DNA of 64,000 bases. Source: Phyllobates terribilis. Lineage: Eukaryota. This document shows positions 8,956 through 42,137 of the stretch, piece by piece. The notes beneath the pieces are model-generated. The model did no database searches, had not been told where the DNA came from, and saw only the letters and a program-made list of their open reading frames with translations. The stretch covers positions 548,328,001 to 548,392,000 of the forward strand of contig NW_027362761.1 of NCBI RefSeq assembly GCF_046119375.1, written 5' to 3'. Position numbers and translations under genes: made by a program. Position 1 is the stretch's first letter. Every line of letters begins with the position of its first letter.

Positions 8956-11800
8956 ATTGGAATGTGTCCTAATTTTTGACAGCCCTTGCAGTCATTGCAC
9001 ACGGAATAACTGTATAGCAGAACCGCTCCTTTATAATGCAAGCACTTTTTTAAATGAAGCCCTCCTCTATGTGTCTTTAAATTGTTATTGTTTTTTTTTC
9101 AAAATTTAGGCAGCAGTTGCAGTCACTCTATGTGTCTTTAAATTGGTATTGGCATCAAAAACGCTACATGTGAACATAGCCCAAGGTGTGGAGGAGCATT
9201 TTTTTATGGGGGGGTTATTTATATTGCCTTATATGCAAGTCATTACCCTGGAAAGGATGTTCCTTAACATTTTTGTTGCAAGAAAATCCATTTTTGTTTT
9301 GTTTTTGTATGTTTTATTGTGAGTCCGTAAAAGTGGTGTAATACTCTGACAACATTGTTCACAGCAGTGGCTTGGGAGTCAGAGATGCTTGCAGGAGTCT
9401 TCCCCATGCTGTTCCCATGTCATTTGAGCACTATTTCCATCGATTTTGGCAATTTTTAGGCCCCCTGCAGACCTCCAGGGGGGGGGGGGGGACTGCCGGA
9501 AGAATGCTCAAGTTTTCCATAGACTTACATTGGGCTTGCTGCTTGGGTACCCGAGCATTCCAATTTGCTCGACTAGAGCAATGAGCACCCGAGCATTTTA
9601 GATCTCGCTCATTACTACCTCTAAGTACTCAAAACCACTTTCAAGAAGTTTATTAACCTTTCAGGTGCTTTATAGGAATTAATGAAATGTGGAAGGAAAA
9701 ATGAAAATTTTACTTTTTTTCCCATACAAATGTTGCTTTAGCCCCAAATTTTGCATTTTCACAAGGGTAACAGGAGAAAATAGAACATACAATTTGCTGT
9801 GTGCAAAAATAAGACTTTGAAAAAAGTTAATTTCAGTGAAGCCTGCAGCATCAAATTGGATTCCTGAGCTGCCTCTAAAATCCAGAATATGATGCTGAAA
9901 ATTTTCGGAGAGGGTTGAGTCCATATGTTATCAATTGCTGAAGGGGTTGCCATATCCTAGGGCACTTTGCTGGGGTTCCCTCCTCACTAGATGAGGAGGA
10001 GGGGGTAGAAAAAATAAGGATTGTTTAATCTTCCTTACTGCCTCAATCTGTGAAGGAGGCAAGGAAAGCACATGCTGGGTGTGACGTGGGGGGTAACCCC
10101 ATCCACAACCCAGCAGCCACCACGGTGACCCCAGCGCTGAGTCACGCCTCACTTGTCGTGATGTCAGCGTGGGGTCATGTAATGCCTGTGAGCGGCCAAA
10201 GATAGCAGAAACAGCAACGTCAAGTATTTACAAAAATCCTTAGGGGCCCCGGGAGGATACATTGGGGGGGGTAAAATAAAGGACTGGACAACTTCTTTAA
10301 TAAATGGAATTGACTCTGCGATTGCCCTATCCGTTATGACTGCTGTTATTGGTACTGTCTCAGGCAGCACCAATCTCAGCATGCCACATTGATTTTTTTT
10401 TTTTTATTTTACTTTTAAAACGTGATGATTGGCTGGTCAGAATTGACTGGCCAATCACAGCAATCACTAACACGGGGAGGCGGATATCGTGAAGAGGTTA
10501 ACAATAATTATGCATTTACTGTCCTTTGTGAAATATAATGTAGCACTTTAAACTTTTATAAATGATTAGAGCCTTCCTGACATGGATTTCCAAAATAAGC
10601 GCTTCTGCCTCATCAGGTCCAAGAGATCTACGTAATAATGTGTGCAGTTTGCATTGTAAAATCTGGTGAAAGATCCACTTTAAAAGAGTCTGACTTAAAA
10701 TCTATCAATTTTTTTATGGTAAGAAAGAGTTAATGAGATAGAACAATCAGTCTTCATTGGGAACAAGAATGAGCTACACACCGAACACTTTGGACTACTT
10801 TAATAAACATCAGCATTAATAGACAATATTATTGTCTGCTGATCCCAGCAAAACATATGCTTTGTGGAAATAAGCAGATGCTATAGCCTAATCCTACAGG
10901 TTATCCTATAATTGTAGAGATGCAAACTGTTTTTTTATTAAAAATATAGTCATGCTATGGGGGAGGGTGGGGGCAAGAGCGCCAACATCTTCTCACAATA
11001 GTAGTTAATGCAGAAGACTTATGGATAAAATCGTGTGGAGCTGGGAATTAGTCAACAGAGACCTCACAAAGTGCTTCCTACACATGCTGTTCTGTCAGGC
11101 TGCACAGCGTCTTCTGCTTCAGAGGTAATTACATAGATTTTCTGTCTTGTACTTTCGAATACACAGCGCAGCACAGCACTTCACCAATGCTCGTAGCTCT
11201 GGGCTCCAGATGTATGGTGCTGGTGGAGGTTTACATATTGCATCTCAAGATTTTCAAACCACCATAAAACATGAAATCGCAAATTCTCTTCCTTTCATTG
11301 TTTTATTCCAGGGAATGGATTCTTTATCCATACTTTGTATTTAAACACTCATTTGTTTAGGATGCCGACTCCTCCGAGTCCATGGACCAGGACTGAAATG
11401 AATGCGCATGTTTAATATGGTCGTCTCCAGACAGGTGCTTCATTATTCATGTTCTGCTGATAGCAAAGCACTTTGGTTTTCTTAAAAAAAATAAAACATT
11501 CACGGTTTACAAACATTTTGCAGAGCAGTTATATAATGTCAGGAGGAATTAAGAGATGAGTTTGGATAAATGTTGGCAACATTGTATTATACAGAATTAT
11601 TACTATATATATTTTATGATCTCGGTAAGAATTTGTATTTTGAGATTATTGTCTGTTTGCTGGCTTTTTAAAACAGTTCGATGAGTCAGTGCTTTATATT
11701 ATGCAAATTGCCTCTTCGGAGAAAAAGAGGACTTGAACTCTATAGCGCCACCTATTGGAAGGTATATGACTTAGGATAAAAGCCAAATCAGAATCTCAAT

Positions 11801-11843
11801 TTGCAGACACGGTGTTCCGGGCTGTTGGCCCTCGTCAGTGCAA
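11801..11843 (-). ncRNA. Minimal type I hammerhead ribozyme (A13G variant)
   Basis: Minus strand TTGCA CTGACGA GGGC caaca GCCC GGAA CAC c GTG TC TGCAA: stems I-III and GUC cleavage triplet, with one core substitution. Confidence 0.8.
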
Positions 11844-12131
11844 CGTATGAGAACTGATTTGTCTAGATGAGAGGCTCTGGACTGAGGTCTAAGGGTTAAT
11901 TTTTCTCCTTGTGGCGAGTAACATGCCGACTCTGGCATGTCAAGGTAAGGAGGCTTATTCGCAGTGCAATGCTTCTCTGGGAAATTGAATAAGCAAATTG
12001 CCTCTTCAGAGAAAAAGAGGACTTGAAATCTATGGCACCACCTATTGGAAGCAGCAATCCTTCAAGTCACAATCAACCCTTTAACGAGTCGTGCAATATG
12101 ACTTAGGATAAAAGCCAAATCAGAATCTCAG

Positions 12132-12176
12132 TTTGCAGGCACAGTGTTTCGGGCTGTTGACCCTCGTCAGTGTAAA
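12132..12176 (-). ncRNA. Minimal type I hammerhead ribozyme (U16.1C variant)
   Basis: Minus strand TTTACA CTGACGA GGGT caaca GCCC GAAA CAC t GTG CC TGCAAA. Confidence 0.8.
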
Positions 12177-12311
12177 GTATGAGAATATGGTTCATATTAA
12201 AAACTTAAACCACTGTATTTCGGAGTTCAGATCCAACCAGAGGAAACATCCAAATAGAGATTAAATGTTTTCCCTAAGTAGAGAGGTTTTCCTATGTTTT
12301 AGAGTAACAAC

Positions 12312-12527: not shown

Positions 12528-12809
12528 GTGACAACATATCATGAGCGTCTATGAAAGGCGGGGGTCTGAATATAGGTTAGAGTGTACATGCTGGCCATTG
12601 ACCCCAACAGATGAGCCAGTGAAAGATATAGATATGGCTACATATTTATGATTCCATGTGAATATAGATGCAATAATAAAGCAACAAGATCCAGCTCACC
12701 ACCTTAAGCCCCAATCCTGTCCAGAGCAATGAAGGCATCTCTGCCCACAGCAATGAAGAAGTTAAGTATTATCCAGCTTCATGGACATAAAATCTTCATT
12801 TATTGTTAA

Positions 12810-13178
12810 AGAGAATTTGTCAGCAGGTTTTTGTTACCTCATCTGTGAGCAGCATGATGTAGGAAAAGAGACCCTGCATCCAACGATGTATCACTTAGTT
12901 TTTTGAGTGCAACCATTCTGACACAATCAGAGTTTTTAGATTTAGCAATGCAGCAGAGCTGAGGAAGCTAACCCCGCCTACACCACAGCTAACTCAGCCC
13001 ACACCACACTCTTAGTAGACTCAGAGCTGCTTATAACAGAAGTTGGTGGAGTTGGACTCGCAAGGTGATTAAAGTTCAGTCTAACGAAACAGCACCACAC
13101 ATCATTGAGTTAAGTGTTTTAACCCATACATTATGCTGTCCTCAGTTTACATAGCAAAAACCTGCTGACAGATTCCAT
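12810..13178. mobile_element. T2/Kolobok-type MITE
   Basis: TTAA on both sides. Terminal inverted repeats agagaatttgtcagcaggtttttg / caaaaacctgctgacagattccat. Confidence 0.75.
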
Positions 13179-14054
13179 TTAAATGTGTAAAATCTTGATA
13201 ACATACATACAAAGGTTCATGTTAGATATAGCAATGCGTTTCTGGTGCGTCAAGCGTCCTTAATCATTTCTTCGGTATAGATGCAGTGACACTATTAGGA
13301 AGCATTATGCTTCTCTCATATTACATAACAAAACCTGCTGACAGATTCCTTTAAATGCTTCACTTGATAATGACTGCTGCATATAAGGAGCATGATAGAG
13401 TAAGTACAGCAATAAAGCTTTATTGTACTAACTCTGCTGACTGTCTTATACATGGAAGTGTAGTCTGATGGAAACCTTTTATTGGCGGAGCAAGAAAGAT
13501 ATAATGCAGCTCTCTGTCCTATTACAGCTGCATTTTGTATGTGTGCATGAGCCCTAAGAGTAATGATACCAAAGTAACTTGAAAGATCTAGGTCCAAATA
13601 CAAATTTGGGAACCGGTCTCGTCTCCTGCCATGTGCCATTTTTGAGCATTCTTATGTGGCACAAATGTCTTTTAGTCCTATTAGGCCACAGGAACCTGAA
13701 ACAGCTACTTCTCCTGCATACCCTTTAAATATGCCCCTAAATGATGAATTTTTTATCTCATTTAGGGTTTTTTCACACTGGTGTATAAAAAATATGTCCC
13801 AGTCTAATTTAGGAAAGTAGGACATATGAAATCCATATGGTATTCTGTATGTAATGCGAGTGTGCAATTTTTTCTCGCCATTCATATGCAATGCGATTTG
13901 TTACATGCGTCTACCCACAGAATCACTAAATGAAAGGGCCAGATAGATTTTTTTAAAGCTATTGTTGAGTTATCACCTTTCTATAGGACTCTTGTTTCTT
14001 GATTATTTTAGGTTTGTTAGCCAAACATGAATTTCAATTTTACATGCTACCAAA

Positions 14055-14560
14055 TTGAGCGTCTCCTTTGTCATGGTGTATTGTCAGTACAGTTTGTTGG
14101 CCATTAGACTCTATGTTCAGAATGCCTTTGATGTTCCATCGCCACGTCTCCAACCTAGATCCACTGGTGTGACATCAGCTTATGTAGTGGTTGCGTTTGA
14201 GGCCTTCCAGATACCACTAAAAGTTTGGAGGCCCTTTCCATGGCACAGTCTGGATGCCTAATATTCAATTACAGTGTAGCAAGTGCAATGGGATTGGTAG
14301 AATGTGCATTTAGCATTTTGGCCCCAAAATGGAGGGTACTGATGTTTGCCCTCCAATTAATCCAACAAAATTACATTTGTGTGAATATGGCATGTGTGAA
14401 CTCCCACTTCTGTAGCCGGATCCACGATAGGCCTGATTATGTGTTTCAACATGGAGACCATAGACCCAATTCTGGCATAGTCCCACACATTGGTTCGAGA
14501 TGCCAAGCCCCTTCTCACATCAGATTATGGTATATGTTGGCTTATAATTGTATTACTCCA
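14055..14560 (+). pseudogene. Harbinger DDE nuclease C-terminal remnant
   Basis: VVAFEAFQIPLKVWRPFP...IFNY...VECAFSILAPKWRVL resembles the HARBI1/DDE_Tnp_4 C-terminus. Confidence 0.75.
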
Positions 14561-14899
14561 GAGTGATTTTAGCCCTGCCAAGACACTCATGTTGCTTTAC
14601 CTTAAGAGAAATTTGTAAAATACCATGTAATAATGTCACATAGGCAAAATATGTGTTTGGTGATATGTTGTGCTGATTTTAAAATGATGTGGAATAATAA
14701 AAATAAAACTCAAACAACACTTAAGGAGAAATTATATGTATTTATTAATGAAGGTAATAAAGTCAATAAGGGCATCCTGCACCATATTGGTTTCATATGT
14801 CAAGGTAAACAAAAACAGAACAAAACAAACAAAAACAAATACTGGTATGTTGTCAGTTTCAAAAAATTATAAATTACAATAAGTAGAGGGGGATCTGGT

Positions 14900-17470
14900 C
14901 TGAGGGTCAGGATTGTGGGAAGACAGAGGCTAGATTGATGCATGACCTGGAGGAACATAGGATTAGTTGGAGGGAAGAGGGTTGTGAGAGGGAAATAAAG
15001 CATCAGATTGAGGAGGCCAACGGTATGGCCCACCTCTAGCACAATATCGTAACTCATGATGCTTATGGCTGTCTCAAATGTGGGCAAAGAGGCCAACAGT
15101 GTGCCCATGGCTAAAGGGGGCAGGTACTCTTCTCCAGCCAATTGATGGGACACTGTTATGTCCTAACTGGTCACCTGGTGTTTGATGTAGGACTGAGCTT
15201 GTGGTGTTGTGGTTGGGGCAGAAGTGGTGCAGGTGGATTACCTGTTTATGTGTGCTGGTTCTGAAGCTGGGGCATGCAAAGGTGGTTCTGGCCTGACAGC
15301 TGCCACCATTCCAGGAATTTATAAACCACTTAGTGGTCATTCAGTGCAGTAGAATTAGCCACCACATTTTGGAGAGCAGACCTGGCTCCCAGCTTGTTTG
15401 GCCATGGAAGGTCCTGCTTAAACCTCACCAGGCTCCAGCAAAATGCCTCATGACCATCTTCTGTATTCGTTTTCTGAGGAAGGGGGTGATGTGGTGGCCC
15501 ATAGTGCCCTGGCGTCTAGACATGGGGCTGATCAGGATTCCCTGTGCACCTGCTGCAATGGGAAATGGGGTCAGCTTGTGGGAGTGTCCAAAGGCAGCGT
15601 AAATGCACTGCTCCGGATTTGGACCTCTTTCTGAGGCTGGTCAACTTCTCCCAGTGGTGTAGCTCCTGCCTCCTCCTGTCCCTTCCCAGCAGGATCCAAC
15701 ACCAAACTTGTGCTAATGGATCTGAAAGGGCAAAAAAGAATCACAAAAACATTGTTTGCACGTTGCAGCAATTTATTAAAAACAAAACAGCTAAAAGAAC
15801 TTAGGGATGATGATCAATAACCGGGTCTAAAAATTGGAGCCTGTGCAGGTACAAGTAAGACCTTTTTTTTCAAGGGCACAGAACTCTGCTTGATGTGCTG
15901 CTGTCGCTCGCGGAGGTATTGGTCATGGTAGCTCTGCCACCATTTGAGCTGTCACTCCAAATAAACAGAGGAAAACTAATTAAAAACACGACATACTACA
16001 AAAATGATTTTGGACAACTGTCTGTTGTGTTTTTCATGGATAAAGTTTGTGGTCCGCTAGGCAAAAAGTCAATGGACATGGCCCCTCTAATTCAAGAATC
16101 TAACTTATTAGCACAATTTAGAACTTTCTTGTCGTTTTGCTTATTATGTCTGTTATGTTACGGGTCCGAGTGGTGGAACCTCCGTGCTTCAGTGCAAGGA
16201 GGGACCAGAGGGGTGTAACTAAGTGCCTACTCGAACCGACCCAGGTCACATGGTGGCTTAGTCGACTCCGTGAACCAGGGAGGGACCGGGCAGGTGAACC
16301 AGGTACGGTAGATAGCCAGACAGGTGCTCTGGGTAAGCAAGCAGGCGGGTACGGCGGAGAGCCATACAGGTGCTCCCGGTAGGCTGGCTGGCGGGCATGG
16401 CAGATTACTGGCTGGTGCTCCAGATAGGCAGGATGGCGGGCACGGCAAGTAACTGGCAGGTGCTCCAGGTAGGCAGGCTGACGGGCACGGCAGGTAACTG
16501 GCAGGTGCTCCAGGTAGGCAGGCTGGCGGGCATGGCAGGTAACTGGCAGGTGCTCCAGGTAGGTAGGCTGGCGGGCACGGCAGGTTACTGACTGGTGCTC
16601 CAGGCAGGCAGGCTAGTGGGCACGGCAGGTTACTGGCAGACTGGCGGGCTGGACTGTTAGACAGACTGGTGGGCAGGTCTGAAAGGCAGCGGGACCTGAG
16701 GGCTGAGGAAAGTGTTAGCACACAAAACAACAACCTTGCACAGGCATTTTGGAGGAGGTGCCTTTTATAGGAGAAGTCCTCCGGCCATTGGCCGGGGACT
16801 CTTTAGGATGGCGAGCGCAGCCCCCTTAAGAGGGAGGGAGCACGCGCGCGCCCTAAGCACAGTGCCCAGAAAGCACCCGAGGTGCGTGCCACAGCAGCAT
16901 CAGGGGAGCAGGAAGACGCCGGACCGGGACCACGGCGGTGAGGGGAACGGTGTCTCTGCCCGGCAGGAGGCCGAGACGCCGATGCTACAGTACCACCCCT
17001 TTACACTCCCTCTTCTTTAAGCCCGCGAGAAATTTTTTAAGAAGATGAGGGGCATGAATGTTCTCCTTGGGTTCCCAAGACCTCTACCAGGGCCAAACCC
17101 CTTCCAATCCACAAGAAATAAAGTCTTTCCCGTGGCAGTGAGGGGAACGGCATCTCCATCTCTGCCCGGCAGAAGGCAGAGACACCGATGCTACATATTA
17201 TTTCTTATTTTGTCTATTCTAATTGGCAAATTATATGTTTGGCAGAATAAAATTCAATACATAATACTGTATAGACATACTTACTGAGTGCAACTTGAAT
17301 ATCTGGTGTGCTGTCAACATAATTTGGGAACACCCTGTGGCATATCTCAGACCAGGCTGCTACCCTTACTGTCCAGTTGACATCAGTGGGGTGGCTGGCA
17401 TCCCACAATACGGAATTGTCCTGTACTAAAACATTGAGTAGTTCCACATTTATGTTCCTTGACATGTTGG
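14900..17470 (-). pseudogene. Harbinger MADF/Myb-like DNA-binding ORF, spliced, degenerate
   Basis: Exon 1 MSRNINVELLNVLVQDNSVLWDASHP...AAWSEIC ends at a gtaagt donor near 17284. The next exon (about 15980-15800) reads KWWQSYHDQYLRE...LQFLDPV with a frameshift. Confidence 0.7.
16156..17195 (-). mobile_element. Internally deleted chromoviral Gypsy LTR retrotransposon (full 3' LTR 16156-16990, PPT, chromodomain remnant, 5' LTR stub)
   Basis: TG...CA ends, flanks tgtta/tatta. Purine tract just before the 3' LTR on the minus strand. LVDWKGFGP..RSWEPKENIHAPHLLKKF remnant at about 17020-17135. 45-bp minisatellite inside the LTR (16330-16680). Confidence 0.8.
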
Positions 17471-17747
17471 GCTTTTTAAGTCCGCAGAGGCATGTTTTTT
17501 TTTGGGGGAGGATGTCTTGGTTGCAAGAAGGCTTTTGGCTAGGAATTTTCAGTGGCTGATGCAATTTCCTGGCTATTGTGTGAGTTGTGAGTTGTTTTCT
17601 CTCACTCATAGACTTGCATTGACGAATATTGTCCGATATACGCGGCCACTCGCAGCATGTTGAATTTTTTTTCTCATGTCAAATACAGCTGAGAAAAAAT
17701 GCACAGATCTGCACTGCCCCATTAAATAACATTGGTCCAAGTGCAAT

Positions 17748-18899: not shown

Positions 18900-21300
18900 T
18901 TAACCCCTTTACCCCGAGGGTGGTTTGCACGTTAATGACCGAGCCAATTTTTACAAATCTGACCACTGTCAATTTATGAGGCAATACCTCTGGAATGCTT
19001 CAACGGATCCCCCTGATTCTGAGATTGTTTTTTCGTGACATATTGTACTTCATGATAGTGGCAAAATTTCTTCAATATCACTTGCGTTTATTTGTGAAAA
19101 AATCAGAAATTTGGCGAAAATGTAGAAAATTTTTATGCCCTTAAATCACAGAGATATAGCTCACAAAATAGTTAATAAATAACATTTTCTATATGTCTAC
19201 TTTACATCAGCATAATATTGGATCCAACATTTTTTTTTTATTAGGGAACTACAAGGGTTAAAAGTTGACCAGCGATTTCTCATTTTTACAACAAAATTTA
19301 CCAAACCAATTTATAGGGACCACATCACATTCGAAGTGACTTTGAAGGGCCCAAAAGTGACACCATTCTAAAAGCTGCATCCCTCAAAGTGCTCAAAACC
19401 ACATTCAAGAAGTTTATTAACCCTTCAGGTGCTTCACAGGAATTTTTGGAATGGGGAAGAAAAAAATGAACATTTAACTTTTTCACAAAAATGTTAATTT
19501 AGACACCAATTTTTTTACTTTTGCAGGGGTACCAGGTAAAAATGGACCCAAAATTTGTTGTGAAATTTCCCCTGAGCATGCAAATACCTGATAAGTGGGG
19601 AAAAACATTGTTTGGGCGCATGGCAGCGCTCAGAAGGGAAGATGCGCAATTTGAATTTTTGAATTTAAAATTTGCTTGAATTAGTGGACGTCATGTAGCG
19701 TTTGGAGAGCCCCTGATGTGCCTTAACAGTAGAACCCCCCACAAGTGACACCATTTTGGAAACTAGACCCCTCAGGGAACTTATCTAGATGTGTAGTGAG
19801 CACCTTGAACCCCCAAGTGCTTCACAGAAGTTTATAACATGGAGCTGTGAAAATAATTAATTCAAACTTTTTCCACAAAAATGATATTTTAGCCCCAATT
19901 TTTTTATTTTCACAAAAATAAGAGGAAAAAAAAGAACATAAAAACTGTTGCTCAATTTCTCCTGAGTACGCTAGTACCCCATATGAGGGGAAAATACACT
20001 GTTTGAGCATATGTCAGGGTTCAGAAGGGAATGAGCACTGTGTTATTTTTTGAACGCAAAATTGGCTGGAATCAAGAGCGAACGCCATGTCGATCCCCCC
20101 CAAAAAAATGCTGGGATCGCTCGTGTATGGCAGGCAATCCCAGCAACGTTTTTTTGACCGCAAAGGACATGGGGCAGAGACTCAAGCATGTCACTCGAAC
20201 AACCGCGATACTCAGCGCATACCCGAGTACCTGATGCAAACTGAAGTAGCGAGCACTTGCGCTCAACACTGGTCGCCATATCGTCATCATTTTTTTTTCT
20301 TTAATTTTGAAAAAATCTCAACACTAATCCCAACCCAAACCCAAGCCCAACACTAGCCCAACCCTAAGCCTAGCACAACCCTAACCCTAGCCCAACCCTA
20401 GCCCAACCCTAACCCTAGCACAACCCTTATACAACCCCAACCCTAATCCTAGCCCAACCCTAACCCTAGCACAACCCTAACCCTAGCACAACCCTAACCC
20501 CAACGCTAATGCAACCCTAACCCTAGCACAATCCTAACCCTATAGTTTATTTTTTTATGCCACTCCTCATGTGGTGTAAGTAATTAGATGACATTATTCT
20601 TCGATTTGTTGCGATTACAGCAATACCAGATTCATATTGGGTTTTTACGATTGACAGCTGTCACACACTAAAAGATGCTTTTTTTGCAAAGACGAGTTTT
20701 TGCATTGCCATATTTTGAGAGCTATAATTTTTCCATATTTTGGCCGACAGAGTCATGTAACAGCTTGTTTTTTAGCGGGACAAGTTGATGTTTTTATTTG
20801 TACCTTTTCGGGCATTTGACATTTTTCTATCTTTTTCTATTCTGATTTTTGGTAGGCAGAATAAACAAAAACCAGCAATTCCAGAATTGTTTTTTTTGTA
20901 AGCCGTTCCGCGAATGGTAAAATTGATCGGCAGCTTTATTCTCCGGTCAGTACATTTACAGCGGTACCGCATTTGTATCATTTTTTTATGTTTTGGTGCT
21001 TTTACACAATAAAACTATTTTCCAGAAAAAAAATAATTTTGCATCACTTTATTCTGAGAGGTATAACTTTTTTATTTTTCATATGATGGAGCTGTATGGC
21101 GGCTTTTATTTGCGGGACAAGATGATGTTTTCAGCGGTACCATTTTTATTTACATTCGTCTTTTTTATTGCGTGTTATTCCATATTTTATTTGGCGTTAT
21201 GATGATAAAGCATTGTTTTCTGCTTAGTTTTTTTTTTTTTACAGTGTTCACTAAAGGGGTTAACTAGTGGGACAGTTTTATAGGTCAGGTCATTCCGGAC
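18900..21300. mobile_element. Kolobok/T2-like long non-autonomous repeat (right end uncertain)
   Basis: Starts TTAA-CCCCTT, contains AAGGGGTTAA at 21254-21263 and internal direct repeats. Related fragments at 9625-9830 and probably 1-210. Confidence 0.6.
20325..20542. repeat. Telomere-like (CCCTAA/CCCTAG/CCCAA) degenerate repeat
   Basis: ctaaccctagcccaaccctagcccaaccctaaccctagcacaaccc... Confidence 0.9.
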
Positions 21301-24129: not shown

Positions 24130-27100
24130 AAAAAAGCAATGAGCGTCTCGCTGGCTGTTCAGACTCCAATATATCTGTTTAAAAGAGTCTGGTGTACGCC
24201 AGAGAACTAGAACTGTGGTTTTCCTCTTCCACGGTTCAAATCTGGGTGTTATCAACCTGCTTGACTTTTTTCCATAAAAAAAACAGTTTGAGTGTGTTAC
24301 TGACTGATCAGACACAAATATATCTATTTTCACAAGTCTGGTATACTCCAGGAAATTATAAGTGTGGTTTTGCAGTTCCACGGTTCAAATCTCTGTATTA
24401 TCCACTTTTTTGTCTTTTTTGCTTAAAAAATAACATTTTCAGTGTCTCACTGACTGTTCCGACACCAATATATCTGTTAAAAAGAGTCTGGTGTAGGCCA
24501 GAGAACAAGAAATGTGGTTTTACTTTTCCACGGTTCAAATCTGGGTGTTATCAACCTGCTTGCCTTTTTCCATAAAAAAAAACAGTTTGAGTGTGTCGCT
24601 GACTGTTCAGACACAAATATATCTATTTTAACAAGTTTAGTATACACCAGGAAATTATAACTGTGGTTTTGCAGTTCCACGGTTCAAATCTCTGTATTAT
24701 CCAATTTTTTGTCTTTTTTGCATAAATAAAAACATTTTCAGTGTCTCGCTGACTGTTCAGACACCAATATATCTGTTTAAAAGAGTCTGGTGTAGGCAAG
24801 AGAACTAGAACTGCGGTTTTCCTCTTCTACCGTTCAAATCTGGGTGTTATCAACGTGCTTGCCTTTTTTCCATAAAAAAAAACAGTATGAGTGTGTCACT
24901 GACTGTTCAGACACAAATATATCTATTTTAACAAGTCTGGTATACACCAGGAAATTATAACTGTGGTTTTGCAGTTCCACGGTTCAAATTTCTGTATTAT
25001 CCACTTTTTTGTCTTTTTTGCATAAAAAAAAACATTTTCAGTGTCTCGCTGATTATTCCGACACCAATATATCTGTTTAAAAGAGTCTGGTGTAGGCCAG
25101 AGAACTAGAACTGTGGTTTTCCTCTTCCACGGTTCAAATCTGGGTGTAATCCACCTTTTTGAATAAAAAAAACATTTTGAGTGTCTCGCTGACTGTTCAG
25201 ACACAAATATATCTATTTTAACAAGTCTGGTATACACCAGGAAATATAACTGTGGTTTTGCAGTTCCACGGTTCAAATCTCTGTGTTATCCACTTTTTTG
25301 CCTCTTTTCAATAAAAAAAAAAACATTTTGAGTGTCTCGCTGACTGTTCAGACACAAATATATCTGTTTAAAAGATTCTGGTGTAGGCCAGATAACTAGA
25401 ACTGTGGTTTTCCTCTTCCACGGTTCAAATCTGGGTGTAATCCACCTTTTTACATAAAAAAAACATTGTGAGTGTCTCACTGACTGTTCAGACACAAATA
25501 TATCTGTTTAAAAGATAACGGTGTAGGCCAGATAACTATTACTGTGGTTTTCCTATCCCATGTATCAAACCTGGGTGTAATCCACCTTTTCACATAAAAA
25601 AAAAAACAGTTTGAGTGTCTCGCTGACTGTTCAGACACAAATATATCTGTTTAAAATAGTTTGGTGTAGGCCAGAGAACTAGAACTGTGGTTTTCCTCTC
25701 CCATGGTTCAAATCTGGGTGTTATATACCTGCTTGCCTTTCTTCCATAATAAAAAAACAGTTTGAGTGTGTTACTGACTGATCAGACACAAATATATCTA
25801 TTTTAACAAGTTTAGTATACACCAGGAAATTATAACTGTGGTTTTGCAGTTCCACGGTTCAAATCTCTGTATTATCCAATTTTTTGTCTTTTTTGCATAA
25901 ATAAAAACATTTTTAGTGTCTCACTGACTGTTCAGACACCAATATATCTGTTTAAAAGAGTCTGGTGTAGGCCAGAGAACAAGAAATGTGGTTTTACTCG
26001 TCCACGGTTCAAATCAGGGTGTTATCAACCTGCTTGCCTTTTTTCCATAAAAAAAAACAGTTTGAGTGTGTCGCTGACTGTTCAGACACAAATATATCTA
26101 TTGTAACAAGTTTAGTATACACCAGGAAATTATAACTGTGGTTTTGCAGTTCCACGGTTCAAATCTCTGTATTATCCACTTTTTTGTCTTTTTTGCATAA
26201 ATAAAAACATTTTCAGTGTCTCACTAACTGTTCAGACACCAATATATCTGTTTAAAAGAGTCTGGTGTAGGCCAGAGAACTAGAACTGTGGTTTTCCTCT
26301 TCCACGGTTCAAATCTGGGTGTTATATACCTGCTTGCCTTTCTTCCATAATAAAAAAACAGTTTGAGTCTGTCGCTGACTGTTCAGACACAAATATATCT
26401 ATTTTAACAAGTCTGGTATACACCAGGAAATTATAACTGTGGTTTTGCAGTTCCACTGTTCAAATCTCTGTATTATCCACTTTTTTGTCTTTTTTGCATA
26501 AAAAAAACATTTTCAGTGTCTCGTTGACTGTTCAGACACCAATATATCTGTTTAAAAGAGTCTGGTGTAAGCAAGAGAACTAGAACTGCGGTTTTACTCT
26601 TCTACCGTTCAAATCTGGGTGTTATCAACGTGCTTGCCTTTTTTCCATAAAAAAAACCAGTATGAGTGTGTCACTGACTGTTCAGACACAAATATATCTA
26701 TTTTAACAAGTCTGGTATACACCAGGAAATTATAACTGTGGTTTTGCAGTTCCACGGTTCAAATTTCTGTATTATCCACTTTTTTGTCTTTTTTGCATAA
26801 AAAAAAACATTTTCAGTGTCTCGCTGATTATTCCGACAACAATATATCTGTTTAAAAGAGTCTGGTGTAGGCCAGAGAACTAGAATTGTGGTTTTCCTCT
26901 CCCATGGTTCAAATCTGGGTGTAATCCACCTTTTTGAATAAAAAATAAATTTTGAGTGTCTCGCTGACTGTTCAGACACAAATATATCTATTTTAACAAG
27001 TCTGGTATACACCAGGAAATTATAACTGTGGTTTTGCAGTTCCACGGTTCAAATCTCTGTGTTATCCACTTTTTTGCCTCTTTTCAATAAAAAAAAACAT

Positions 27101-27775
27101 TTTCAGTGTCTCACTCACTGTTCAGTCACAAATATATCTGTTTAAAAGATTCTGGTGTAGGCCAGATAACTAGAACTGTGGTTTTCCTCTCCCACGGTTC
27201 AAATCAGGGTGTAATCCACCTTTTTGCATAAAAAAACAGTTTGAGCGTCTCGCTAACTGTTCAGACACAAATATATCTGTTTAAAAGATTCTGGTGTAGG
27301 CCAGAGAACTAGAACTGTGGTTTTCCTTTTCCATGGTACAAATCTGGGTGTAATCCACCTTTTTGCATAAAAAAAAAACAGTTTGAGTGTCTCGCTGACT
27401 GTTCAGACACAAATATATCTGTTTAAAAGAGTCTGGTGTAGGCCAGATAACTAGAACTGTGGTTTTGCAGTTCCACGGTTCAAATTTCTGTATTGTCCAC
27501 TTTTTTGCCTTTTTTCAATAAAAAAAACATTTTGAGTGTCTCACTGACTGTTCAGACACAAATATATCTGTTTAAAAGATTCTTGTGTAGGCCAGATAAC
27601 TAGAACTGTACTTTTCCTCTCCCCTGGTACAAATCTGGGTGTAATCCACCTTTTTGCATAAAAAAAAATATTTTAAGTATCTCGCTGATGTTCAAACACA
27701 AATATCTGTTTGAAAGAGTCTGGTGTAGGCCAGATAACTAGAACTGTGGTTTTCTTCTTCCACGGTTCAAATCTC
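24130..27775. repeat. About 150-bp satellite array (about 24 units, two subtypes, partly alternating) upstream of the family A transposase
   Basis: Recurrent gactgttcagacac...ctgtggtttt...ccacggttcaaatc units every 140-155 bp. Confidence 0.95.
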
Positions 27776-32530: not shown

Positions 32531-33002
32531 CACTGCTGCAGCTGCGTGTAAGACGGCACCGCTGTTGCTGTGTGTGCTATACCTTGTTAATTTCAAGCCA
32601 ATTTTCGCACAAATCTACAGATAGCTTGGGAGTAGGGAATAGTTGTGATTGCAGTCCTTTTAAGGACTAGGTTACAGCATTTCCTACGACTTTTATCAGG
32701 CAGGTCTGTGCTCTTAAATAGATAGATTGTGGGAGTAAAGACTAATTGTAATTGGAGTCCTTTTCAGGACTAGGTTACATCAGTTCCTATCAGTTTTTGC
32801 CAGGCAGGTCTGTGCCAGTGCTGTGCAAGTTTTTTTCACAGCATTTGGCTGAATCTAGCAAAGCTAATCCTTTTTGGCCTATTGCAGAGTGTGTTAGTCA
32901 GTGGAGTAGCCTTTCTGTGTTGCAAGATATACCACCTGTGTATAGAATACCAATTTTTTTACTGCACCTAGTGAAGTAAAATCTTTTGGGCATAGCATCA
33001 TT

Positions 33003-34262
33003 CTATTAGTCCATCTATACAGACCTCCATCAGGTTGCAAATTGAATATAATTTTTTTCTGCATCTACCTCTGAAAAAATATTGGGCTTCTAGCTGTGTG
33101 TGGGACTTGTTGTATTAGTCCATCTATACTGACCTCCATCAGGTTGCAAACTGAATATATTTTTTTCTGCATCTACCTCTGAAAAAATATTGGGCTTCTA
33201 GCTGTGTGTGGGACTTGTTGTATTAGTCCATCTATACAGACCTCCATCAGGTTGCAAACTGAATATATTTTTTTCTGCATCTACCTCTGAAAAAATATTG
33301 GGCTTCTAGCTGTGTGTGGGACTTGTTCTATTAATCGATCTATACAGACCTCCATCAGGTTGCAAACTGAATATATTTTTTTCTGCATCTACCTCTGAAA
33401 AAATATTGGGCTTCTAGCTGTGTGTGGGACTTGTTGTATTAGTCCATCTATACTGACCTCCATCAGGTTGCAAACTGAATATATTTTTTTCTGCATCTAC
33501 CTGAGAAAAAATATTGGGCTTCTAGCTGTGTGTGGGACTTGTTCTATTAATCCATCTATACAGACCTCGATCAGGTTGCAAACTGAATATATTTTTTTCT
33601 GCATCTACCTCTGAAAAAATATTGGGCTTCTACCTGTGTGTGGGACTTGTTGTATTAGTCCATCTATACTGACCTCCATCAGGTTGCAAACTGAATATAT
33701 TTTTTTCTGCATCTACCTCTGAAAAAATATTGGGCTTCTAGCTGTGTGTGGGACTTGTTCTATTAATCCATCTATACAGACCTCCATCAGGTTGCAAACT
33801 GAATATATTTCTTTCTGCATCTACCTCTGAAAAAATATTGGGCTTCTAGCTGTGTGTGGGACTTGTTGTATTAGTCCATCTATACTGACCTCCATCAGGT
33901 TGCACACTGAATATATTTTTTTCTGCATCTACCTCTGAAAAAATATTTGGCCTTCTAGCAGTGTGTGGGACTTTCTCTATTAGTCCATCTATACTGACCT
34001 CCATCAGGTTGCAAATTAAAAATAATTTTTATCTGCATCTAGCTCTGAAAAAATATTTGGCCTTCTAGCAGTGTGTGGGACTTTCTCTATTAGTCCATCT
34101 ATACTGACCTCCATCAGGTTGCAAATTAAAAATAATTTTTATCTGCATCTAGCTCTGAAAAAATATTTGGCCTTCTAGCAGTGTGTGGGACTTTATTAGT
34201 CCATCTATACTGACCTCCATCAGGTTGCAAATTGAATATAATTTTTTTCTGCATCTAACCCA
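33003..34262. repeat. 108-bp satellite array, about 11-12 units
   Basis: tattagtccatc at 33004, 33113, 33221 and onward. Confidence 0.95.
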
Positions 34263-34373
34263 GCCAATAGTTTTGGCCTAATACCACAGTTTGGCCACTC
34301 AGCTCTGCTCGGTTCCCATCCATTGTTTTTTTGTGCAAACAACTCCAGAGTTGTTAATTAGTTAACCACCAAA

Positions 34374-37300
34374 ATGAGTGGAAAAAGGCCTGCTGCTGGT
34401 GGAAAGGGGAATAGGCGTGTTGGGAAGGGGAAAAAAGGTTGTGTCCGTGGGGTAGGTGTTAAAGCAACAGTAACATCTGCAGAAGAAACACCATCTTCCA
34501 GCCAAACTAAAATGTCTACTTCTTTTAGCGGACAATGTGATAAGATCCCTTTCTTACGGCCACGCCAATCGCTACAAATTCCAGATGAGGCACAAAAACA
34601 GCAGGTGCTTCAACGGATATCAAGTGCTCCTTTAAGTGGGCTCTCCTCCACATCAACTTCAACATCACAAATACTCCAGTCCTCAAAGGTGTCACCCCAA
34701 TCGCACTTGTTTCCTCACAGCTCCCAAATCTCCAGCTGCCCGTCTGAGTATGAGGTAGAACAGATGGTTGAGTCTGCAGAGCTGTTTACTCATACTATAG
34801 CCTGGGAATCAGAGGTCGACTCCAGCGCTTCTGTGAATCCAGACGAGGAAATGATCTGCACTGATGCCCAGAATCTTTATGAGTCGGATCCAGGACCAGA
34901 CGCAGGAGGTTCTGACCATAATGTAGACCCTCATTCCCAAACTGTAACTCCTGTTGGTGGAGACAATGAGGAAGACGATGATAAGACTCAAATACCTGAT
35001 TGGAGCGACAACTTTAGTTTTTTGTCAGGGCAGGAACAGGTTGGCTCTGAGGACGACGGGTGTGATAACGCACAGGGTGATGATGATGAGGTTGGAGATC
35101 CCACTTACTGTCAACCCACAGTAAGCCAAGAGATGAGGACAGCAGAGGAGGTGGAGGAAGATGCTAGTGACGACGAGGTCAGGTTGCGCCTTCCTGGACA
35201 GAGACGTAGTACTGGAAGCACGTCAACAACTGCATCCTCAAACACAACTCTGCCTCTCACCACAAGTCGTGGTGGCTCTTCAGGTCGCATGGGTGCTAAG
35301 CCTTGCATAGCCTGGGCATATTTTCAGATCGATAAAGATGACCCAACTCGTGTTATCTGTAACATTTGTCAGCAAAAGCTAAGTAGAGGCCAAAAAATAC
35401 ATAGTTTGAGTACTTCATGCATGAACCAGCACATGGACATGAAGCATAAGTTGCAGTGGGAAGCTCAGTGTGCTACAATGCGGCCTAGCCGGCCGGGCCA
35501 ACCACCGTCTGCCATATCTTGTGCATCCGCGGCCTCTTCATCATCTGTGACTGGGGGGACAGCAGTCACACCTGTTTTGGGGCGCAGACCTGCCACCTCT
35601 TTACCCGCAACAGCCAGCGTGATTGGCAGGTCATCATTTTCTTTGGAGGTGGTAACACCAGCTGGTGTTGAGCGCTGTCCGACATCGATAGCACCACCTT
35701 TGGATCAAGGCAACCTAACATGTCCGCCTGCATCTTCCTCACAGACCGGCAGTTTGCCGGGGACACCCTTATCAACCCCGTCTAAGCACAATAGCCAGCC
35801 CTCGGTCCCTCAGATGTGGACAAGTAAAAGACCATTTCCTCCTAGCCATGAGAAAGCTAAGAGGTTGAATTTCACCATCTGCAAGTTCTTGGCTACAGAA
35901 ATGCTGCCTTTCCGCCTGGTGGACACAGAGGATTTTCGAAACCTTATGTCCGTCGCAGTGCCCCAGTACCAGATGCCCAGTCGGCACTACTTCTCAAAGA
36001 AAGGTGTGCCTGCGCTCCACCAGCATGTCGCACACAACATCACCGCTTCTTTGAGAAACTCTGTGTGTGACAGGGTGCATTTCACCACAGACACTTGGAC
36101 GAGTAGGCATGGACAGGGGCGTTACATGTCGCTGACTGGGCACTGGGTAACTATGGTGACAGCAGGACAAGGGGCTGCTGTCCAAGTCTTGCCGTCCCCA
36201 CGAGTTGTGCGTCAATCCTCTTTATGTCAAAGTTCCTCCACTGCTTCTGCCTCCTCAACCTCCTCTCGGTCTTCCACCTGCACCCAAAGCCTGTCTGGTC
36301 ATGCCACAAGCTTTCTAACTGCGCAGAAGGGATCCTGCACACCTCTTTACTATGCTGGCAGTAGGGCTCAATGTCATCAGGCGGTTTTTACATTGAAATG
36401 TCTGGGAAATGTGAGTCACACAGCTGAGGAGTTGTGGTCAGCTCTGGAGAACCAATTTCATGAATGGTTGTCTCCACTGGACCTGAAACCAGGGAAGGCC
36501 GTGTGCGACAATGCTGCAAACCTGGGTGCGGCCCTTCGCCGGGGCAATGTCACACACGTGCCTTGTATGGCTCACGTGTTGAACCTGGTTGTCCAGCAAT
36601 TTTTAGCCCACTATCCCAGACTAGATGGCCTTCTGCAGAAGGCACGGTCGCTGTGTGCTCACTTCCGCTGTTCGCATCCCGCAGCTCAGCGACTTACATC
36701 TCTACAGAAGTCGTTGGGCCTGCCACTTCACCGGCTAAAATGCGATGTGCCTACCCGGTGGAATTCAACTCTGCACATGTTGCAGCGACTGTGGCAGCAC
36801 CGACAAGCCCTGATGCAATACGTTCTGACGTATAGCCTGGGCCAACGAGATCCAGAGGTGGGGCAAATCACGTTGGAGGATTGGTCTCAGATCAGGGACC
36901 TATGCACCCTTCTGCACAGTTTTGAAATGGCGACGAAGATGTTTAGTGCTGATGATGCCATTATCAGCATGACTATTCCGGTGATTTACATGCTGGAGCA
37001 CATGTTAATAGAATTCGGAGTCAGGTGGTGGCACAAGAGGAGGTGGAGGAAGTAGAGGAGGAGGAGTTGTATGCGGAAGGGCTAACATCTGCAAGGTCCA
37101 GACGGTCGGCAGCACCAAGGCGGCAGGCATGTGAGGGTGGGGGAGATGGTTTTACCAGGGCGCATGGTAGCAGCCAAACTAGTGAGGAAGGTGCAGGAGC
37201 CCAGGAAGAAGTGGAGGATGAACTGATGGAAGGCTCATCAGATGAGGGAGACCTTGATCACATTTCTGTTGTGCGAGGTTGGGGGGAGAGGACAGAGGAA

Positions 37301-38055
37301 GGAAGCATGATTGTTACCTCGCCACCAACACAACAGGGACTTGGTGCTCCTGGATGCGCAACACACATGAGTGCCTTCTTGCTGCACTACCTGCAACATG
37401 ACCCTCGAATTGTGAGAATTAGAAATAATCCTGACTACTGGGTTGCCACACTGTTAGATCCCCGGTACAAAAGTAAATTTGCAGAAATTATTCCTGCCAT
37501 AGAAAGGGATGCACGCATGCAGGAGTATCAGCAGAGACTGTTGCAGAATCTTACATGTGCTTTTCCACAAAATACCAGTGGTGCACGTAGTGAATCTCAC
37601 AGTTCCAACTTGCCAACCGTGGGACCGTCAAGTGTTCAGCACTCAAACCGTAACAGAACCACAGTATCTGCTGGTAACATCACCACTTTTTTAGCCCATC
37701 CTTTGCAAGGCCACAGGAGACAAGAAGTCTGACACATAGTCAACGCCTAGAGACGATGGTACAGGAGTATCTCCAAGTAAACATTGAAGCCACGACTGTG
37801 TCACTGGACCCTTGCTCTTTTTGGGCTTCCAATCTGGATAAATGGCCGGAGCTAGCCACTTACGCCTTGGAGATCTTGTCATGCCCCGCAGCCAGCGTTC
37901 TGTCTGAACGTGTGTTCAGCGCTGCTGGTGGTGTGCTGACAGATAAGCGCACTCGGCTCTCCACTGATAATGTAGACAGACTCACGTTCATAAAGATGAA
38001 CAAATCATGGATCCGAAACGACTTTTCTACCCCTGTGTCATCCTGGGGAGAGTAA
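34374..38055 (+). pseudogene. hAT family B transposase (ZBED-like), two frameshifts; about 1,230 aa when repaired
   Basis: ORFs 34374-37055, 37025-37732, 37756-38055. BED AWAYF...CNIC...MNQHMDMKH, FTTDTWTS, VCDNAAN, PCMAH, TRWNS, LLDPRYK, SVLSERVFS all intact. Confidence 0.96.
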
Positions 38056-38490
38056 AAGCTTGATGATTGGTTAAAATCACCCTACCAACCGTTTTAAGCT
38101 TTCAAATTACTAATCATGTTTATCTGTATCTTGGCTGGAAAATAATTTGGGCTTTGTAGCAGTGTGCAGCACTGATTCTATTAGGCCATCTATAATAAGC
38201 TCCACCAGATTTAAAATTACTAATCATGTTTATCTGTATCTTGACTGGAAAATAATTTGGGCTTTGTAGCAGTGTGCAGCACTGATCCTATTAGGCCATC
38301 TATACTAAAGCTTCACCAGATTTAAAATTAATAATAATTTTTAGCTGCATCTAGCCCGGAAAATAATTTTGGGGCTCCGAGATGCGCAAGACACATAAGT
38401 GCCTTCTTGCTGCACTACCTGCAGCATGACCCTCATATTGTCAGAATTCGAAGTAATCATGACTACTGGGTTGCCACACTCTTAGATCCC

Positions 38491-39865
38491 CCAAACTTTT
38501 CGATCAACCTTTTCATTTTAATAAAGACCAAAAAAATGGTCATTTTTGAAATTATAAGCATTAGCAGGTTGTTAGAAACTGAAATCAAACAGTTTTCAAC
38601 TCAAAACTTTATTCTAGGTGATGTTACATTTTCACATAGGACCGCTTGTTCGAAAGGAGCTTCTGAACTCTCTCGTCCATTGAATTTGTCAGGTTTTGGA
38701 TGGTTTCTGCTTCAATTGTTTTGCATGAGGACAGAATACCCTCCCAGAGCTGTTGCTTAGATGTGAACTGCCTCCCGCCATCATAGACACTCCTTTTAAT
38801 GATGCTCCAAAGGTTCTGAATGGGGTAGAGGTCAGGGGAGCATGGGGGTCACACCATAATTTTGTCCCCTTTTATGCCCATATCAGCCAGAGATGCAGAT
38901 GTTTTATGTGCAGCATGAGATGGTGCATTATCATGCAGAAAAATGATCTTGCTGTGAAATACATGGTTCTTCTTCTTGAACCATGGCAGGAAGTGCTGTT
39001 TGAGAAAATCCACATACATTATGGAGTTCATCTTTAGCGCCTTCAGGGATCCTAAAGGGGCCGACAATCTCTCTCCCCATGATTCCAGCCCAAAACATTA
39101 CTCCACCTCCTCCTTGTTGGCGCTGTAGCCGTGTTTGCGTGGGGTGTCCATCAACCAGCCATCCTCCACTCCATCCATCTGGACCATCGAGCGCTGCACG
39201 GCACTCATCCGTGAACAAAACAGTTTTGAAATCAGTCTTCATGTAATGTTTGGCCCACTGGAGCCGTTTCTGCTTGTGTGAAGTGGATAGAGGAGGTCGA
39301 CAGGATGGCATATGCACAGCTGCAAACCTCTGAAGGACCCTGCATCTTGTTGTTCGGGGGACGTTGGAGGCACAAGCAGCTTCAAAAACTTGTCTGCTGC
39401 TATGACAAGGCTTTTTTGCCGCTGCTCTTTCAACCTGACGTAATTGCCTGTAGGAAAGAGTCCTCAATTTGCCCTTATCAGCACGCACACGTGTGTACTG
39501 TGAATCAGCTACATACTTGTTGATTGCCTAGACACTTCATCCTGATCATCGCACAATGTTGATTGTAGTCATGCCTTGACCTAAACACTCCACAATTTGT
39601 TGCTTCTCAGCAGCCGACACATCCTTTTTCTTTCCCATTTTGGCAGAAAATGTAGGCTGCTTAATAATGTGAGACAGCCTTCTTAAGTAGTCTTGCCTTT
39701 CATTGGACACATCTGCCAAACTAATTAGCACAGGTGTCTGCAATTGCTTACAGTGATATAAAGAGCCCTGACACACATCACCATCAATGAGTTTAACTGA
39801 CAAACAAACAAATTCTTCCCTTATCACTCCTAAACACTTTTTGCATAATAATTTGGAACACAGTG
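38491..39865 (-). mobile_element. Tc1/mariner remnant carried inside family B copy 1
   Basis: TA followed by TIR cactgtgttccaaattattatgc at the 39865 end. MGKKKDVS..., VLFTDEC, FLHDNAPSH motifs. Other end truncated. Confidence 0.9.
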
Positions 39866-39949
39866 TACATGTGCTTTTCCACAAAACACCAGTGGTTCAC
39901 GTAGTGAATCTTACAGTTCTAACTTGCCAACCGTGGTCTGTATGGAGTT

Positions 39950-41765
39950 GTTCAATAAAGGGCCCAAAATTAAGATAACATAGATGGGAGAGGTCTCTAT
40001 GAATAGGAATTCCTAAGTATTTGATACCCTGTGAGGGCCAGGCAAAGGGAAAGTTGGACTGGATGGAATCCTATATGGATTTGGTGAGGGAGACATCGAG
40101 GTCCTCAGACTTCGATGCATTGATTTTAAAATTTGACCATGTAACAAAGTGATCTATTTCAGCCATAACAGCATGGATGGATATATGTGATTGAGTGATA
40201 TATACTAGGACATCATCAGCAAATAGAGAGCACTTGTACTCGGTGCCTCCCACCTCAATCCACCTAATATTGAGGTTATGGCGAATTGATGAGAGCAGGT
40301 GCTCCGTCACTAGGATGTATAAGAGAGGGGACAGAGAACATCCCTGCCTTGTCCCATTGGTGATTGTGAAAGGTGATGAAAATGTTCTGACGCGCCCCCT
40401 GGACCTTGGGACATCCGGAGCCGGACACTTTTTGGTGGATGCTGGTGGTTGTAGTCTCCGTGGCGGCAACCCGGTTCCGTGGCTCAGGGCGGTCAAACCA
40501 GTGGCGGAACTATTTATGTGGTTTTGATGTTTAAATGTCCGACTACGCCACCCGTGGATTGCGGTCAGAATGAACCGCCACTCCTGGGCAGACCGCTGAG
40601 GCTGGTGTTGTGGGTGCAGCAGAGCGTAGCATAAATCCCCACGGGAGGAGTATAGCCTCAGGGCAGTGTATGCGGAGGATGGGGGTGATGGTGCAGGGCA
40701 GCAGCAGTAATGACATGGAGTCAGTGATGCAGTCCAGGGCCTTTACTCACAGTTATTATTATCCAGACCACGTCTGCAGGTAACGGCTGCCCACGTCGTA
40801 CTGTGCTCACCAGGTGAGGGGCTCAGACAACTCCCAGATAACTTTGGAGTGCTTCACAGGACCCCCTTTGTGTGTCCTTTGTCTGGCCTTTCTTACCAAC
40901 CCTTCTGTCCGGCTGCCTCGGGCCTCCTCTTGGTAAATTTGGCGCCAGTTTCCCTGACCCTATGTGGTGCCTTCCTAGCGGGTGTAGCGAGGGGCTGCGC
41001 CACATAAAATGTCACAGCCTCCTGTTTCTAGCTGAGGGTCGTTTCCTGCCTCCACTAGTTTCGGGGACCGGTCTCCCCCTTTGGCCTGACCCCTCCACGC
41101 AGGTGGATTCGGGCGTGCGGTAGCGACTCGCCCGTCCGCACCCCTGAGATCCCTTCGTTCCTCGTTCCTGGAGCCTTCTCCGCTCCTCTTCCTTCCTTCT
41201 CCCTCTTCCAGGCCTGGGCCTCTGTTACTAGGCCCGCCTCCGGAGCAGAGCGCATGCAGAGCCCCTGCTCCCTGCCACTTCTGCTCAGACTTCTCTGCAC
41301 TGAACTAAGATGGTGCCCACCTTTTATACTCCCTTCTCAATGCACCCAGGAACTGCTTCCTCCCTGCTCCTGCACTACAGGGTTCCCCTTCCTCAGTGTT
41401 CCCTCCCCCCACTCCAGCCAGGGACAGGGACTGTCGTGCCCATCTCAGGGGCATATTGGTCGCCCTGCCCCATGGCAATGTGGTGTAATGCATGCAGGTG
41501 TCGGGTCCTGATCCACACTACATCCTTACCTGAGAGTGAGATATCACACCTCTGGGTGAGGTGCAATACCTCTGTAGCAACCGAGCCCTCAGGGTGCTAC
41601 AGTTCCATTTATCTTCAGCCTAGGTGACGTATTGCGATACAGGTCCGTGATTTTGGCTATAAAAGGGTCCCCTAGACCCCTACCCCAAGCTTTTTAAGAG
41701 AATCATATATGGCGTGCCAGGAGACTCTATGGAATGCTTTCTCAGCATCCAACGAGAGTATCTAA
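39950..41765 (-). pseudogene. L1-clade reverse transcriptase fragment, split by solo LTR
   Basis: LSLDAEKAFHRVSW (41765-41700), RLKINGT|[15 protein letters not shown]...LFADDVL...KYLGI once the LTR is removed. Confidence 0.88.
40388..41601 (-). mobile_element. 1,214-bp solo LTR
   Basis: Minus strand TGTAGC...GCGTCA with 4-bp TSD GAAC. TATAAAA about 275 nt from its 5' end. Confidence 0.85.
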
Positions 41766-41871
41766 TTACAAATTTTTAACTGCATCTAGCCCAGGAAATA
41801 CTTTGTGCCTAGTAGCAGGGTCTGCTAGTCAGCGGATTATCCCGGCTGTTAAGCAAGCTACACCACCTGTA

Positions 41872-42137
41872 GTTTGGACACTTCATTTTTTCAAAGGAAA
41901 TGCTTCGGGACCACGGGATACTCAGTGAAGAGCATCAGGAGGCACCCCAAGGCATAGGGGCTCGGACTGGCAGCAGGATGCCTTGCGGTGGACAGCCGAG
42001 CTCGATCCTTATAAAAGCTTTTTAACTGCAGCAGCTTTAGTGGACGCTACTGGAGCTGGAATTACGCGGCTGCTGGCATGAGACTTGCCCTCCAATAGAT
42101 CCTTGTAAATGGATTTAAAGTGTATTTATTCAAATTA
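41872..42137 (-). pseudogene. 18S rRNA: 18S rRNA gene fragment (about 265 bp) inside family B copy 1
   Basis: Reverse complement gagggcaagtctcatgccagcagccgcgtaattccagctcc...gctgcagttaaaaagct...gatgctctt...cccgaagcatttcctttgaaaaaa matches vertebrate 18S as I recall it. Confidence 0.9.

Follow-up and report, generated by a model that had tools for sequence, protein, structure and literature searches.

A stretch of 64,000 nt of Phyllobates terribilis DNA (the window, to whose positions all coordinates refer) contains at 11700..12185 an insertion made of 1.46 units of a non-coding, 332-nt repeat that carries hammerhead ribozyme motifs. The insertion is read on the minus strand, as are all of its features described here apart from one CTCF-like string. 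Direct-repeat search and alignment resolve it into an upstream repeat of 196 nt (11990..12185), a single-copy part of 136 nt (11854..11989) and a downstream repeat of 154 nt (11700..11853). In the initial annotation the element had been described as carrying tandem hammerheads; the repetition and the 332-nt spacing were borne out, but the insertion falls short of a dimer, ending after 1.46 units. Its downstream repeat is missing 42 nt between 11764 and 11761 that are present in the upstream repeat and retained in contigs of the sequence family described below. The head-to-tail period of 332 nt lies inside the retrozyme range of 150-450 bp, the GC content of the unit is 44 %, that is, below 50 %, and the longest stop-to-stop frame spans 96 codons, the unit thus reading as non-coding. 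TRF reported no tandem array at the insertion, and no further copy of the unit was detected elsewhere in the 64 kb (best E 1.3), leaving the insertion isolated. Pattern scans of metagenome contigs, prokaryote genomes and viral contigs likewise returned 0 further copies, as expected for a frog repeat. A string on the plus strand, which we take to resemble a CTCF site, had been placed at about 11737; by its sequence it occupies 11743..11758, with a second copy at 12033..12048.

The two type I hammerheads that had been predicted on the minus strand, 332 nt apart, are indeed present. The upstream one (HH1, 12132..12176) is damaged in its core by U16.1C at 12139 and is mismatched in helix I at 12173, with a predicted cut after 12138, which places the 5' end of the upstream repeat 47 nt upstream of the cleavage nucleotide. 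The downstream one (HH2, 11800..11844) is damaged in its core by A13G at 11817, and the terminal pair of its helix I is mismatched at 11844, with a predicted cut after 11806. Each hammerhead therefore carries a single core lesion, different from that of the other, as had been annotated. A type I descriptor that allows one core mismatch recovers exactly these two sites in the 64 kb and no site in any of 12 composition-matched null windows.

The dimensions of the ribozymes (helix I of 6 bp, helix II of 4 bp, and a helix III that is short and palindromic) are those given for canonical metazoan hammerheads, in which a 6-bp helix I and a 4-bp helix II are combined with a short helix III and a palindromic loop, whereas the minimal hammerheads of Penelope-like elements (PLEs) combine a helix II of 7-8 bp with a helix I that is shorter and with an additional nucleotide following A9 (PMC4209133). 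The designation 'minimal' in the initial annotation was consequently rejected, as helix II is 4 bp long, the extra nucleotide is absent and helix I, at least in HH2, is extended. A 1-nt loop of stem III had also been proposed; a single nucleotide cannot close a helix, and in the monomer helix III consists of 2-3 bp with a near-palindromic loop of 3-5 nt. Between HH1 and HH2, the helix III strands are complementary at seven of nine positions, which is what a double hammerhead would need. A hybrid hammerhead that combines the HH1 core with the HH2 cut site was considered as well: its core is canonical, but it has a helix I mismatch and lies 11.1 kcal/mol above the optimal fold, and it was set aside because of this poor fold and because a single cut would yield no monomer. 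With both cores lesioned and the hybrid so far above the optimum, the locus is predicted to be inactive and is not expected to release a monomer.

In its sequence context, HH2 is predicted to form an extended helix I of 18 bp (11784..11861; 5+5+8 bp with two internal loops), with a fold z of -3.29 and an equally good fold in 2 of 200 shuffles, while HH1 is without the distal arm of this helix (fold z 0.70). Read by eye, the majority letter of the family at 11862 would add three pairs to the extended helix. The predicted structure of a complete unit favours the ribozyme strand, for which the fold z is -3.35 (0 of 100 shuffles as good), compared with -1.0 for the plus strand (16 of 100), and when the unit is folded as a circle only 1 of 60 nulls is equally stable.

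The insertion belongs to a large repeat family. Among 24 sequencing runs returned by a search with the stretch, 20 contain part of it and none contains half of its words. Four of the runs, one for each of four organisms (A-D) and each from a different study, were analysed by counting contigs that match at 80 % or above; one of them, X1, possibly derives from the source organism, and three studies remain without it. No RNA run was named among those containing the stretch; six runs with small shares (X15-X20, guessed to be RNA) and one further organism were left out of the family analysis. The family is represented by 7,380, 14,766, 16,232 and 15,261 contigs, which are contig counts and not copy numbers; their depth drops to flank level beyond about 11690-12185, and contigs cross the single-copy part and run from it into both repeats. 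The majority letter is canonical in all four runs at the HH2 lesion (11817; 98.0-99.9 % of depth), at the HH1 lesion (12139; 96.0-97.5 %) and at the helix I mismatch of HH2 (11844; 99.7-99.9 %). The lesions of HH1 and HH2 are therefore private to the present copy, and the occurrence of private lesions on both repeats fits decay after insertion. The canonical consensus that had been postulated from two differently damaged copies thus agrees with the majority letters of the family, and the existence of a retrozyme-like family in anurans, whose majority ribozyme is canonical, is supported.

Variation within the family also touches the paired regions. The helix II pair 11829-11821 has changed from G-C to A-U in organism C (73 and 83 % of depth, respectively), a change that accounts for at most 1.2 % in the other three organisms; judging from these depth shares, both changes appear to lie on the same contigs. 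Apart from the family proper, contigs that leave the reference ('loose ends') at 11809 in run X11 and at 11821 in run X13 (51 and 43 contigs, respectively) contain hammerhead-like variants with a different helix II (G-run and C-run) and, on the basis of their sequence, indicate that organisms C and D have related subfamilies of the hammerhead.

The unit was previously compared with newt satellite 2, which is driven by a small nuclear RNA (snRNA)-type promoter with an octamer; the octamer ATGCAAAT at 11701 and a degenerate copy at 11991, noted in this connection, were both found as described. The exact octamer (11701..11708), which is expected by chance in 2.3 % of shuffled units, sits at the insertion's 3' end, on the downstream side of both ribozymes. 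The second copy (11991..11998) matches at seven of eight positions and is the sole octamer upstream of a ribozyme; in the family majority it is exact, the majority letter at 11992 being that of the octamer in all four runs (99.1-99.5 % of depth). Two candidates for a proximal sequence element (PSE) were identified in the single-copy part with probes that are human only (PMC1790723). Candidate 1 (11931..11949) matches the human U6 PSE at 13 of 19 positions and is the best of 628 positions, with a chance expectation of 5.4 %. Candidate 2 (11900..11918) matches U6 at 10 of 19 positions (rank 5 of 628) and H1 at 9 of 15 (rank 2 of 630), and presumably bears some likeness to the Xenopus type of PSE. 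In the family majority, candidate 2 forms a short inverted repeat and may alternatively represent RNA structure. It is located 64-65 nt upstream of the position corresponding to the 5' end of the insertion, the PSE of the 7SK gene being situated at -67 to -46 (PMC2235858). By analogy, candidate 2 would place the transcription start about 48 nt before the ribozyme cut. Newt ovarian transcripts reportedly start 46-47 nt upstream of the cut.

Other observations make the promoter less certain. The SBS1 probe for a Staf/ZNF143 site (PMC3627581) was unmatched in the unit, where just the 6-nt core occurs at 11983, outside the five best ungapped matches and with a chance expectation of 20 %. In addition, the octamer shows complementarity to the 3' strand of helix I, with which it pairs when the 1.46-mer is folded optimally; this offers a reason for its presence other than promoter function. 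The promoter proposal has in its favour the upstream octamer, which is exact in the family, but is weakened by two competing and weak PSE candidates, by the unmatched Staf site and by the downstream position of the intact octamer; that the unit carries an internal snRNA-type promoter is, from these sequence features, a tentative suggestion to which we give slightly less than even chances. According to a 2020 review, metazoan retrozymes seem to lack promoters (PMC7761336), and no report of a frog retrozyme promoter was found among titles and the beginnings of abstracts, in a search outside which most subscription papers fell.

The 3' end of the insertion provides information on the mode of its integration. 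At 11700, loose ends are formed by 82, 288, 297 and 321 contigs in the four runs; they are AT-rich, show an agreement of 0.40-0.45 and have a median length of 255 in three runs and of 38 in X1. From the 24 of 2178 loose-end sequences that were listed, many sister copies are read as passing into unrelated AT-rich DNA just past the octamer. In an intact unit, this end zone is situated 146 nt downstream of the ribozyme cut and is therefore not a product of self-cleavage; it sits in a predicted hairpin made by the octamer region. The Penelope-like protein of a lizard was reported to nick AT-rich DNA, to start copying at two internal sites in a stem-loop and to use uncleaved RNA as its main substrate in vitro (PMC11167929), and by analogy the ends of the frog family would fit a Penelope-type insertion. 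The insertion is, moreover, flanked by a possible target-site duplication, the 3' copy of which (11690..11699) is identical at eight of ten positions to the 5' copy (12188..12197), with 2 nt between the latter and the element; equally good scores were obtained for 62 of 5000 local pairs and for 109 of 5000 shuffles (p 0.012-0.022). On the left flank (11560-11690), single contigs of runs X9, X11 and X13, with a depth of 1-23, share differences from the present sequence and possibly represent the orthologous site.

Penelope mobilisation had been inferred as a possibility with reference to reverse transcriptase (RT) genes encoded nearby. An open frame of about 494 codons (~61382-62870, minus strand) combines RT and GIY-YIG parts with a cysteine-rich linker, and a Penelope-like RT fragment is found at 45676-46350. 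We take these frames to be PLEs from their motifs and from relatives named RT or GIY-YIG proteins, and the longer one is presumably Neptune-like. The closest relatives of the Penelope-like frame are from dendrobatid frogs (63-64 % identity; the best of 631 at E<=1e-20), which supports an anuran host, while NCBIfam and PDB searches of the Penelope-like open reading frames (ORFs) were uninformative. The frames are 33-50 kb from the insertion and have no sequence in common with the unit, and a descriptor scan found no hammerhead beside them, including the flank of the frame at 61382. For the suggested mobilisation, then, the family ends would fit, but the nearby ORFs fail as support: they are distant and dissimilar, and their proximity is therefore no evidence. 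Their presence demonstrates that the genome harbours enzymes of this kind but does not identify the one that mobilised the insertion.

Several systems resemble the frog family. Animal non-LTR retrozymes, that is, retrozymes without long terminal repeats (LTRs), were defined in work that named PLEs as their likely carriers and showed that dimers of the axolotl 330/350-nt units cleave and that circles form (PMC7229834). With the axolotl Rtz_331 and Rtz_353 described there, the frog family shares a non-coding unit of about 330 nt, a GC content below 50 %, an amphibian host in which copies are very numerous, a type I hammerhead of the canonical form whose palindromic helix III is weak, and a stable predicted fold; it differs in its frog host, in a helix III loop that is a 5-nt near-palindrome and not a tetraloop, and in the occurrence of the present copy as an isolated 1.46-mer. 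More recently, non-LTR retrozymes were detected in all seven amphibians sampled, with 57 families in Xenopus, a mean amphibian unit of 316 bp and a proposed link to PLEs (Li, Clavereau and Pollet, bioRxiv 10.64898/2026.07.22.740005). The frog family resembles the anuran retrozymes of Li et al. in unit length, in its dispersed monomers or short tandems and in the proposed mobilisation by PLEs. Li et al. call a retrozyme active when two consecutive complete ribozymes lie in a TRF tandem, which the present locus, as distinct from its family, does not have; internal promoters and end zones are not discussed in the main text of their preprint. Newt satellite 2 is similar in its length of about 330 bp, its hammerhead and an octamer upstream of the ribozyme in the unit; it has an snRNA-type promoter (PMC2220036) used by polymerase II (PMC6765202), whose activity was demonstrated, whereas the PSE of the frog unit is ambiguous and its promoter putative. 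PLEs share with the frog unit the partial tandem, the location of a hammerhead inside the repeated part and possibly also internal 3' ends and AT-rich targets (PMC11167929, PMC8557442, PMC4209133), but the frog unit has no ORF, its hammerhead is canonical and the locus contains no inverted 5' copy.

In our view, the insertion is probably a decayed 1.46-unit copy of a high-copy frog non-LTR retrozyme with a canonical hammerhead, which was copied from RNA by a Penelope-like enzyme. By analogy with the axolotl elements (PMC7229834), intact multimers would be transcribed and, after cleavage, 332-nt monomers would be ligated into circles; as in related amphibian elements, pairs of hammerheads would share the palindromic helix III and cut as dimers. 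Penelope biochemistry suggests that an RT-endonuclease would then nick AT-rich DNA and prime internally, next to the octamer. At the present locus, copying would have run for 1.46 units and stopped, after which both repeats would have mutated independently. As to the template, the balance tips marginally towards a circle that was read past one turn, an uncleaved multimer being a serious candidate rated just under one half.

A number of observations weigh against a retrozyme origin of this kind. The Rfam hammerhead models gave no match at gathering level on the window, nor any at E<=10 on 901 or 96 nt around the element. The majority letter at 11842 is changed in organisms B and D (81 and 84 % of depth, respectively) in a way that would disrupt one pair of helix I, and a compensating change was not seen among 40 of 82 entries listed. 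None of the contigs listed runs the full length of the stretch, and arrays of more than 1.46 units were not observed. The loose ends gather at 11700 by construction, because the reference itself ends there; their consensus follows the unit for 8-17 nt or more, some copies continuing into the unit, which indicates an end zone and not a single site. The target duplication is marginal on its sequence match, no partner Penelope family was identified for the unit, which has no similarity to another part of the window (best E 1.3), and cleavage in vitro was reported for only one of nine Xenopus dimers (bioRxiv 10.64898/2026.07.22.740005).

The unit could instead be the pseudo-LTR of an autonomous PLE, of which the locus would be a truncated remnant. 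[quoted passage not shown] However, the ribozyme is canonical and has neither the long helix II nor the extra nucleotide of the PLE hammerheads, and just 136 nt without an ORF, and hence without RT and GIY-YIG, separate the repeats at the locus. Furthermore, among the 24 of 2178 loose-end sequences listed none enters a shared long sequence at the unit boundaries, and the unit shows no likeness to the DNA that flanks either PLE-like ORF in the window, which makes a pseudo-LTR improbable. A retrozyme-like unit that was mobilised by a long interspersed nuclear element (LINE) with priming at the RNA 3' end, or by yet another enzyme, would account for the A/T-rich 3' flank, and LINE-type RT fragments do occur in the window; LINEs were left possible as carriers in the axolotl work (PMC7229834). 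Yet the 3' end is internal to the unit, 146 nt past the cut, and has no poly(A) or simple-repeat tail, which fits internal priming better than priming at an RNA end, and mobilisation of this type appears very improbable.

An ordinary satellite spread by DNA recombination, with the hammerhead as a relic devoid of a current role, would explain why both ribozymes at the locus are broken and go undetected by Rfam, as well as why eight of the nine Xenopus dimers stayed uncleaved (bioRxiv 10.64898/2026.07.22.740005). It is nevertheless the least probable of the explanations considered here, given that the copy is isolated in the window and has a possible target duplication, that the family majority preserves the core, that organism C has a double change of helix II, and that folding is strand-specific. 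A variant of the retrozyme explanation is a self-promoting element, in which the octamer and PSE would let polymerase II start about 48 nt before the cut, precisely at the 5' end of the insertion, the insertion would derive from a full-length, uncleaved primary transcript and not from a circle, and the octamer would act both as a promoter element in the DNA and, in the RNA, as a partner of the helix I strand, beside the site at which the Penelope-like enzyme begins; we regard this variant as unlikely, albeit less so than the three alternatives to a Penelope-copied retrozyme.

The remainder of the window is rich in other repeats. To the right of the insertion, 12806-13355 contains inverted repeats (84 nt, 70 %; 26 nt, 85 %) that resemble a miniature inverted-repeat transposable element. 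A weak MADF match (14201-14566, plus strand; E 0.002) and a frame at 17214-17678 (minus strand) that we read as a fragment of a Harbinger nuclease possibly belong together to a decayed Harbinger transposon. Degenerate telomere-like hexamers occur at 20319-20542 within periods of 11, 17, 28 and 45 nt, and 24140-27774 is a tandem array of about 12 double units with a 150/300-nt period. An inverted duplication of about 97 % identity (33001-42631 versus 47046-56588) includes hAT (zf-BED and dimerisation), Tc1-like and RT fragments. Fragments similar to 18S ribosomal RNA (Rfam RF01960, 61-65 bits) were found at 42044-42163 (minus strand), 47488-47851 (plus strand) and 63333-64000 (plus strand), inside a block that is present three times with 97-98 % identity (41522-42631, 47039-48162 and 62872-64000); one copy of this block lies directly against the Penelope-like RT frame, on its 5' side.

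Non-LTR retrozymes of amphibians, and the link to Penelope, have already been published (PMC7229834; bioRxiv 10.64898/2026.07.22.740005), and the single locus described here, one among very many decayed copies, is of little weight. The family to which it belongs bears on the question of which enzyme mobilises animal retrozymes, as the end zone beside the octamer gives a predicted point at which a frog RT of the Penelope type would begin copying. It also bears on the transcription of retrozymes, for which promoters seem to be lacking according to the review, while newt satellite 2 has a promoter of the snRNA type. If the promoter of the frog unit is real and conserved, it may represent a general amphibian trait, and the promoter known from satellite 2 would be extended from salamanders to frogs; if the retrozyme is indeed self-promoting, it would contradict the absence of promoters stated in that review (PMC7761336).

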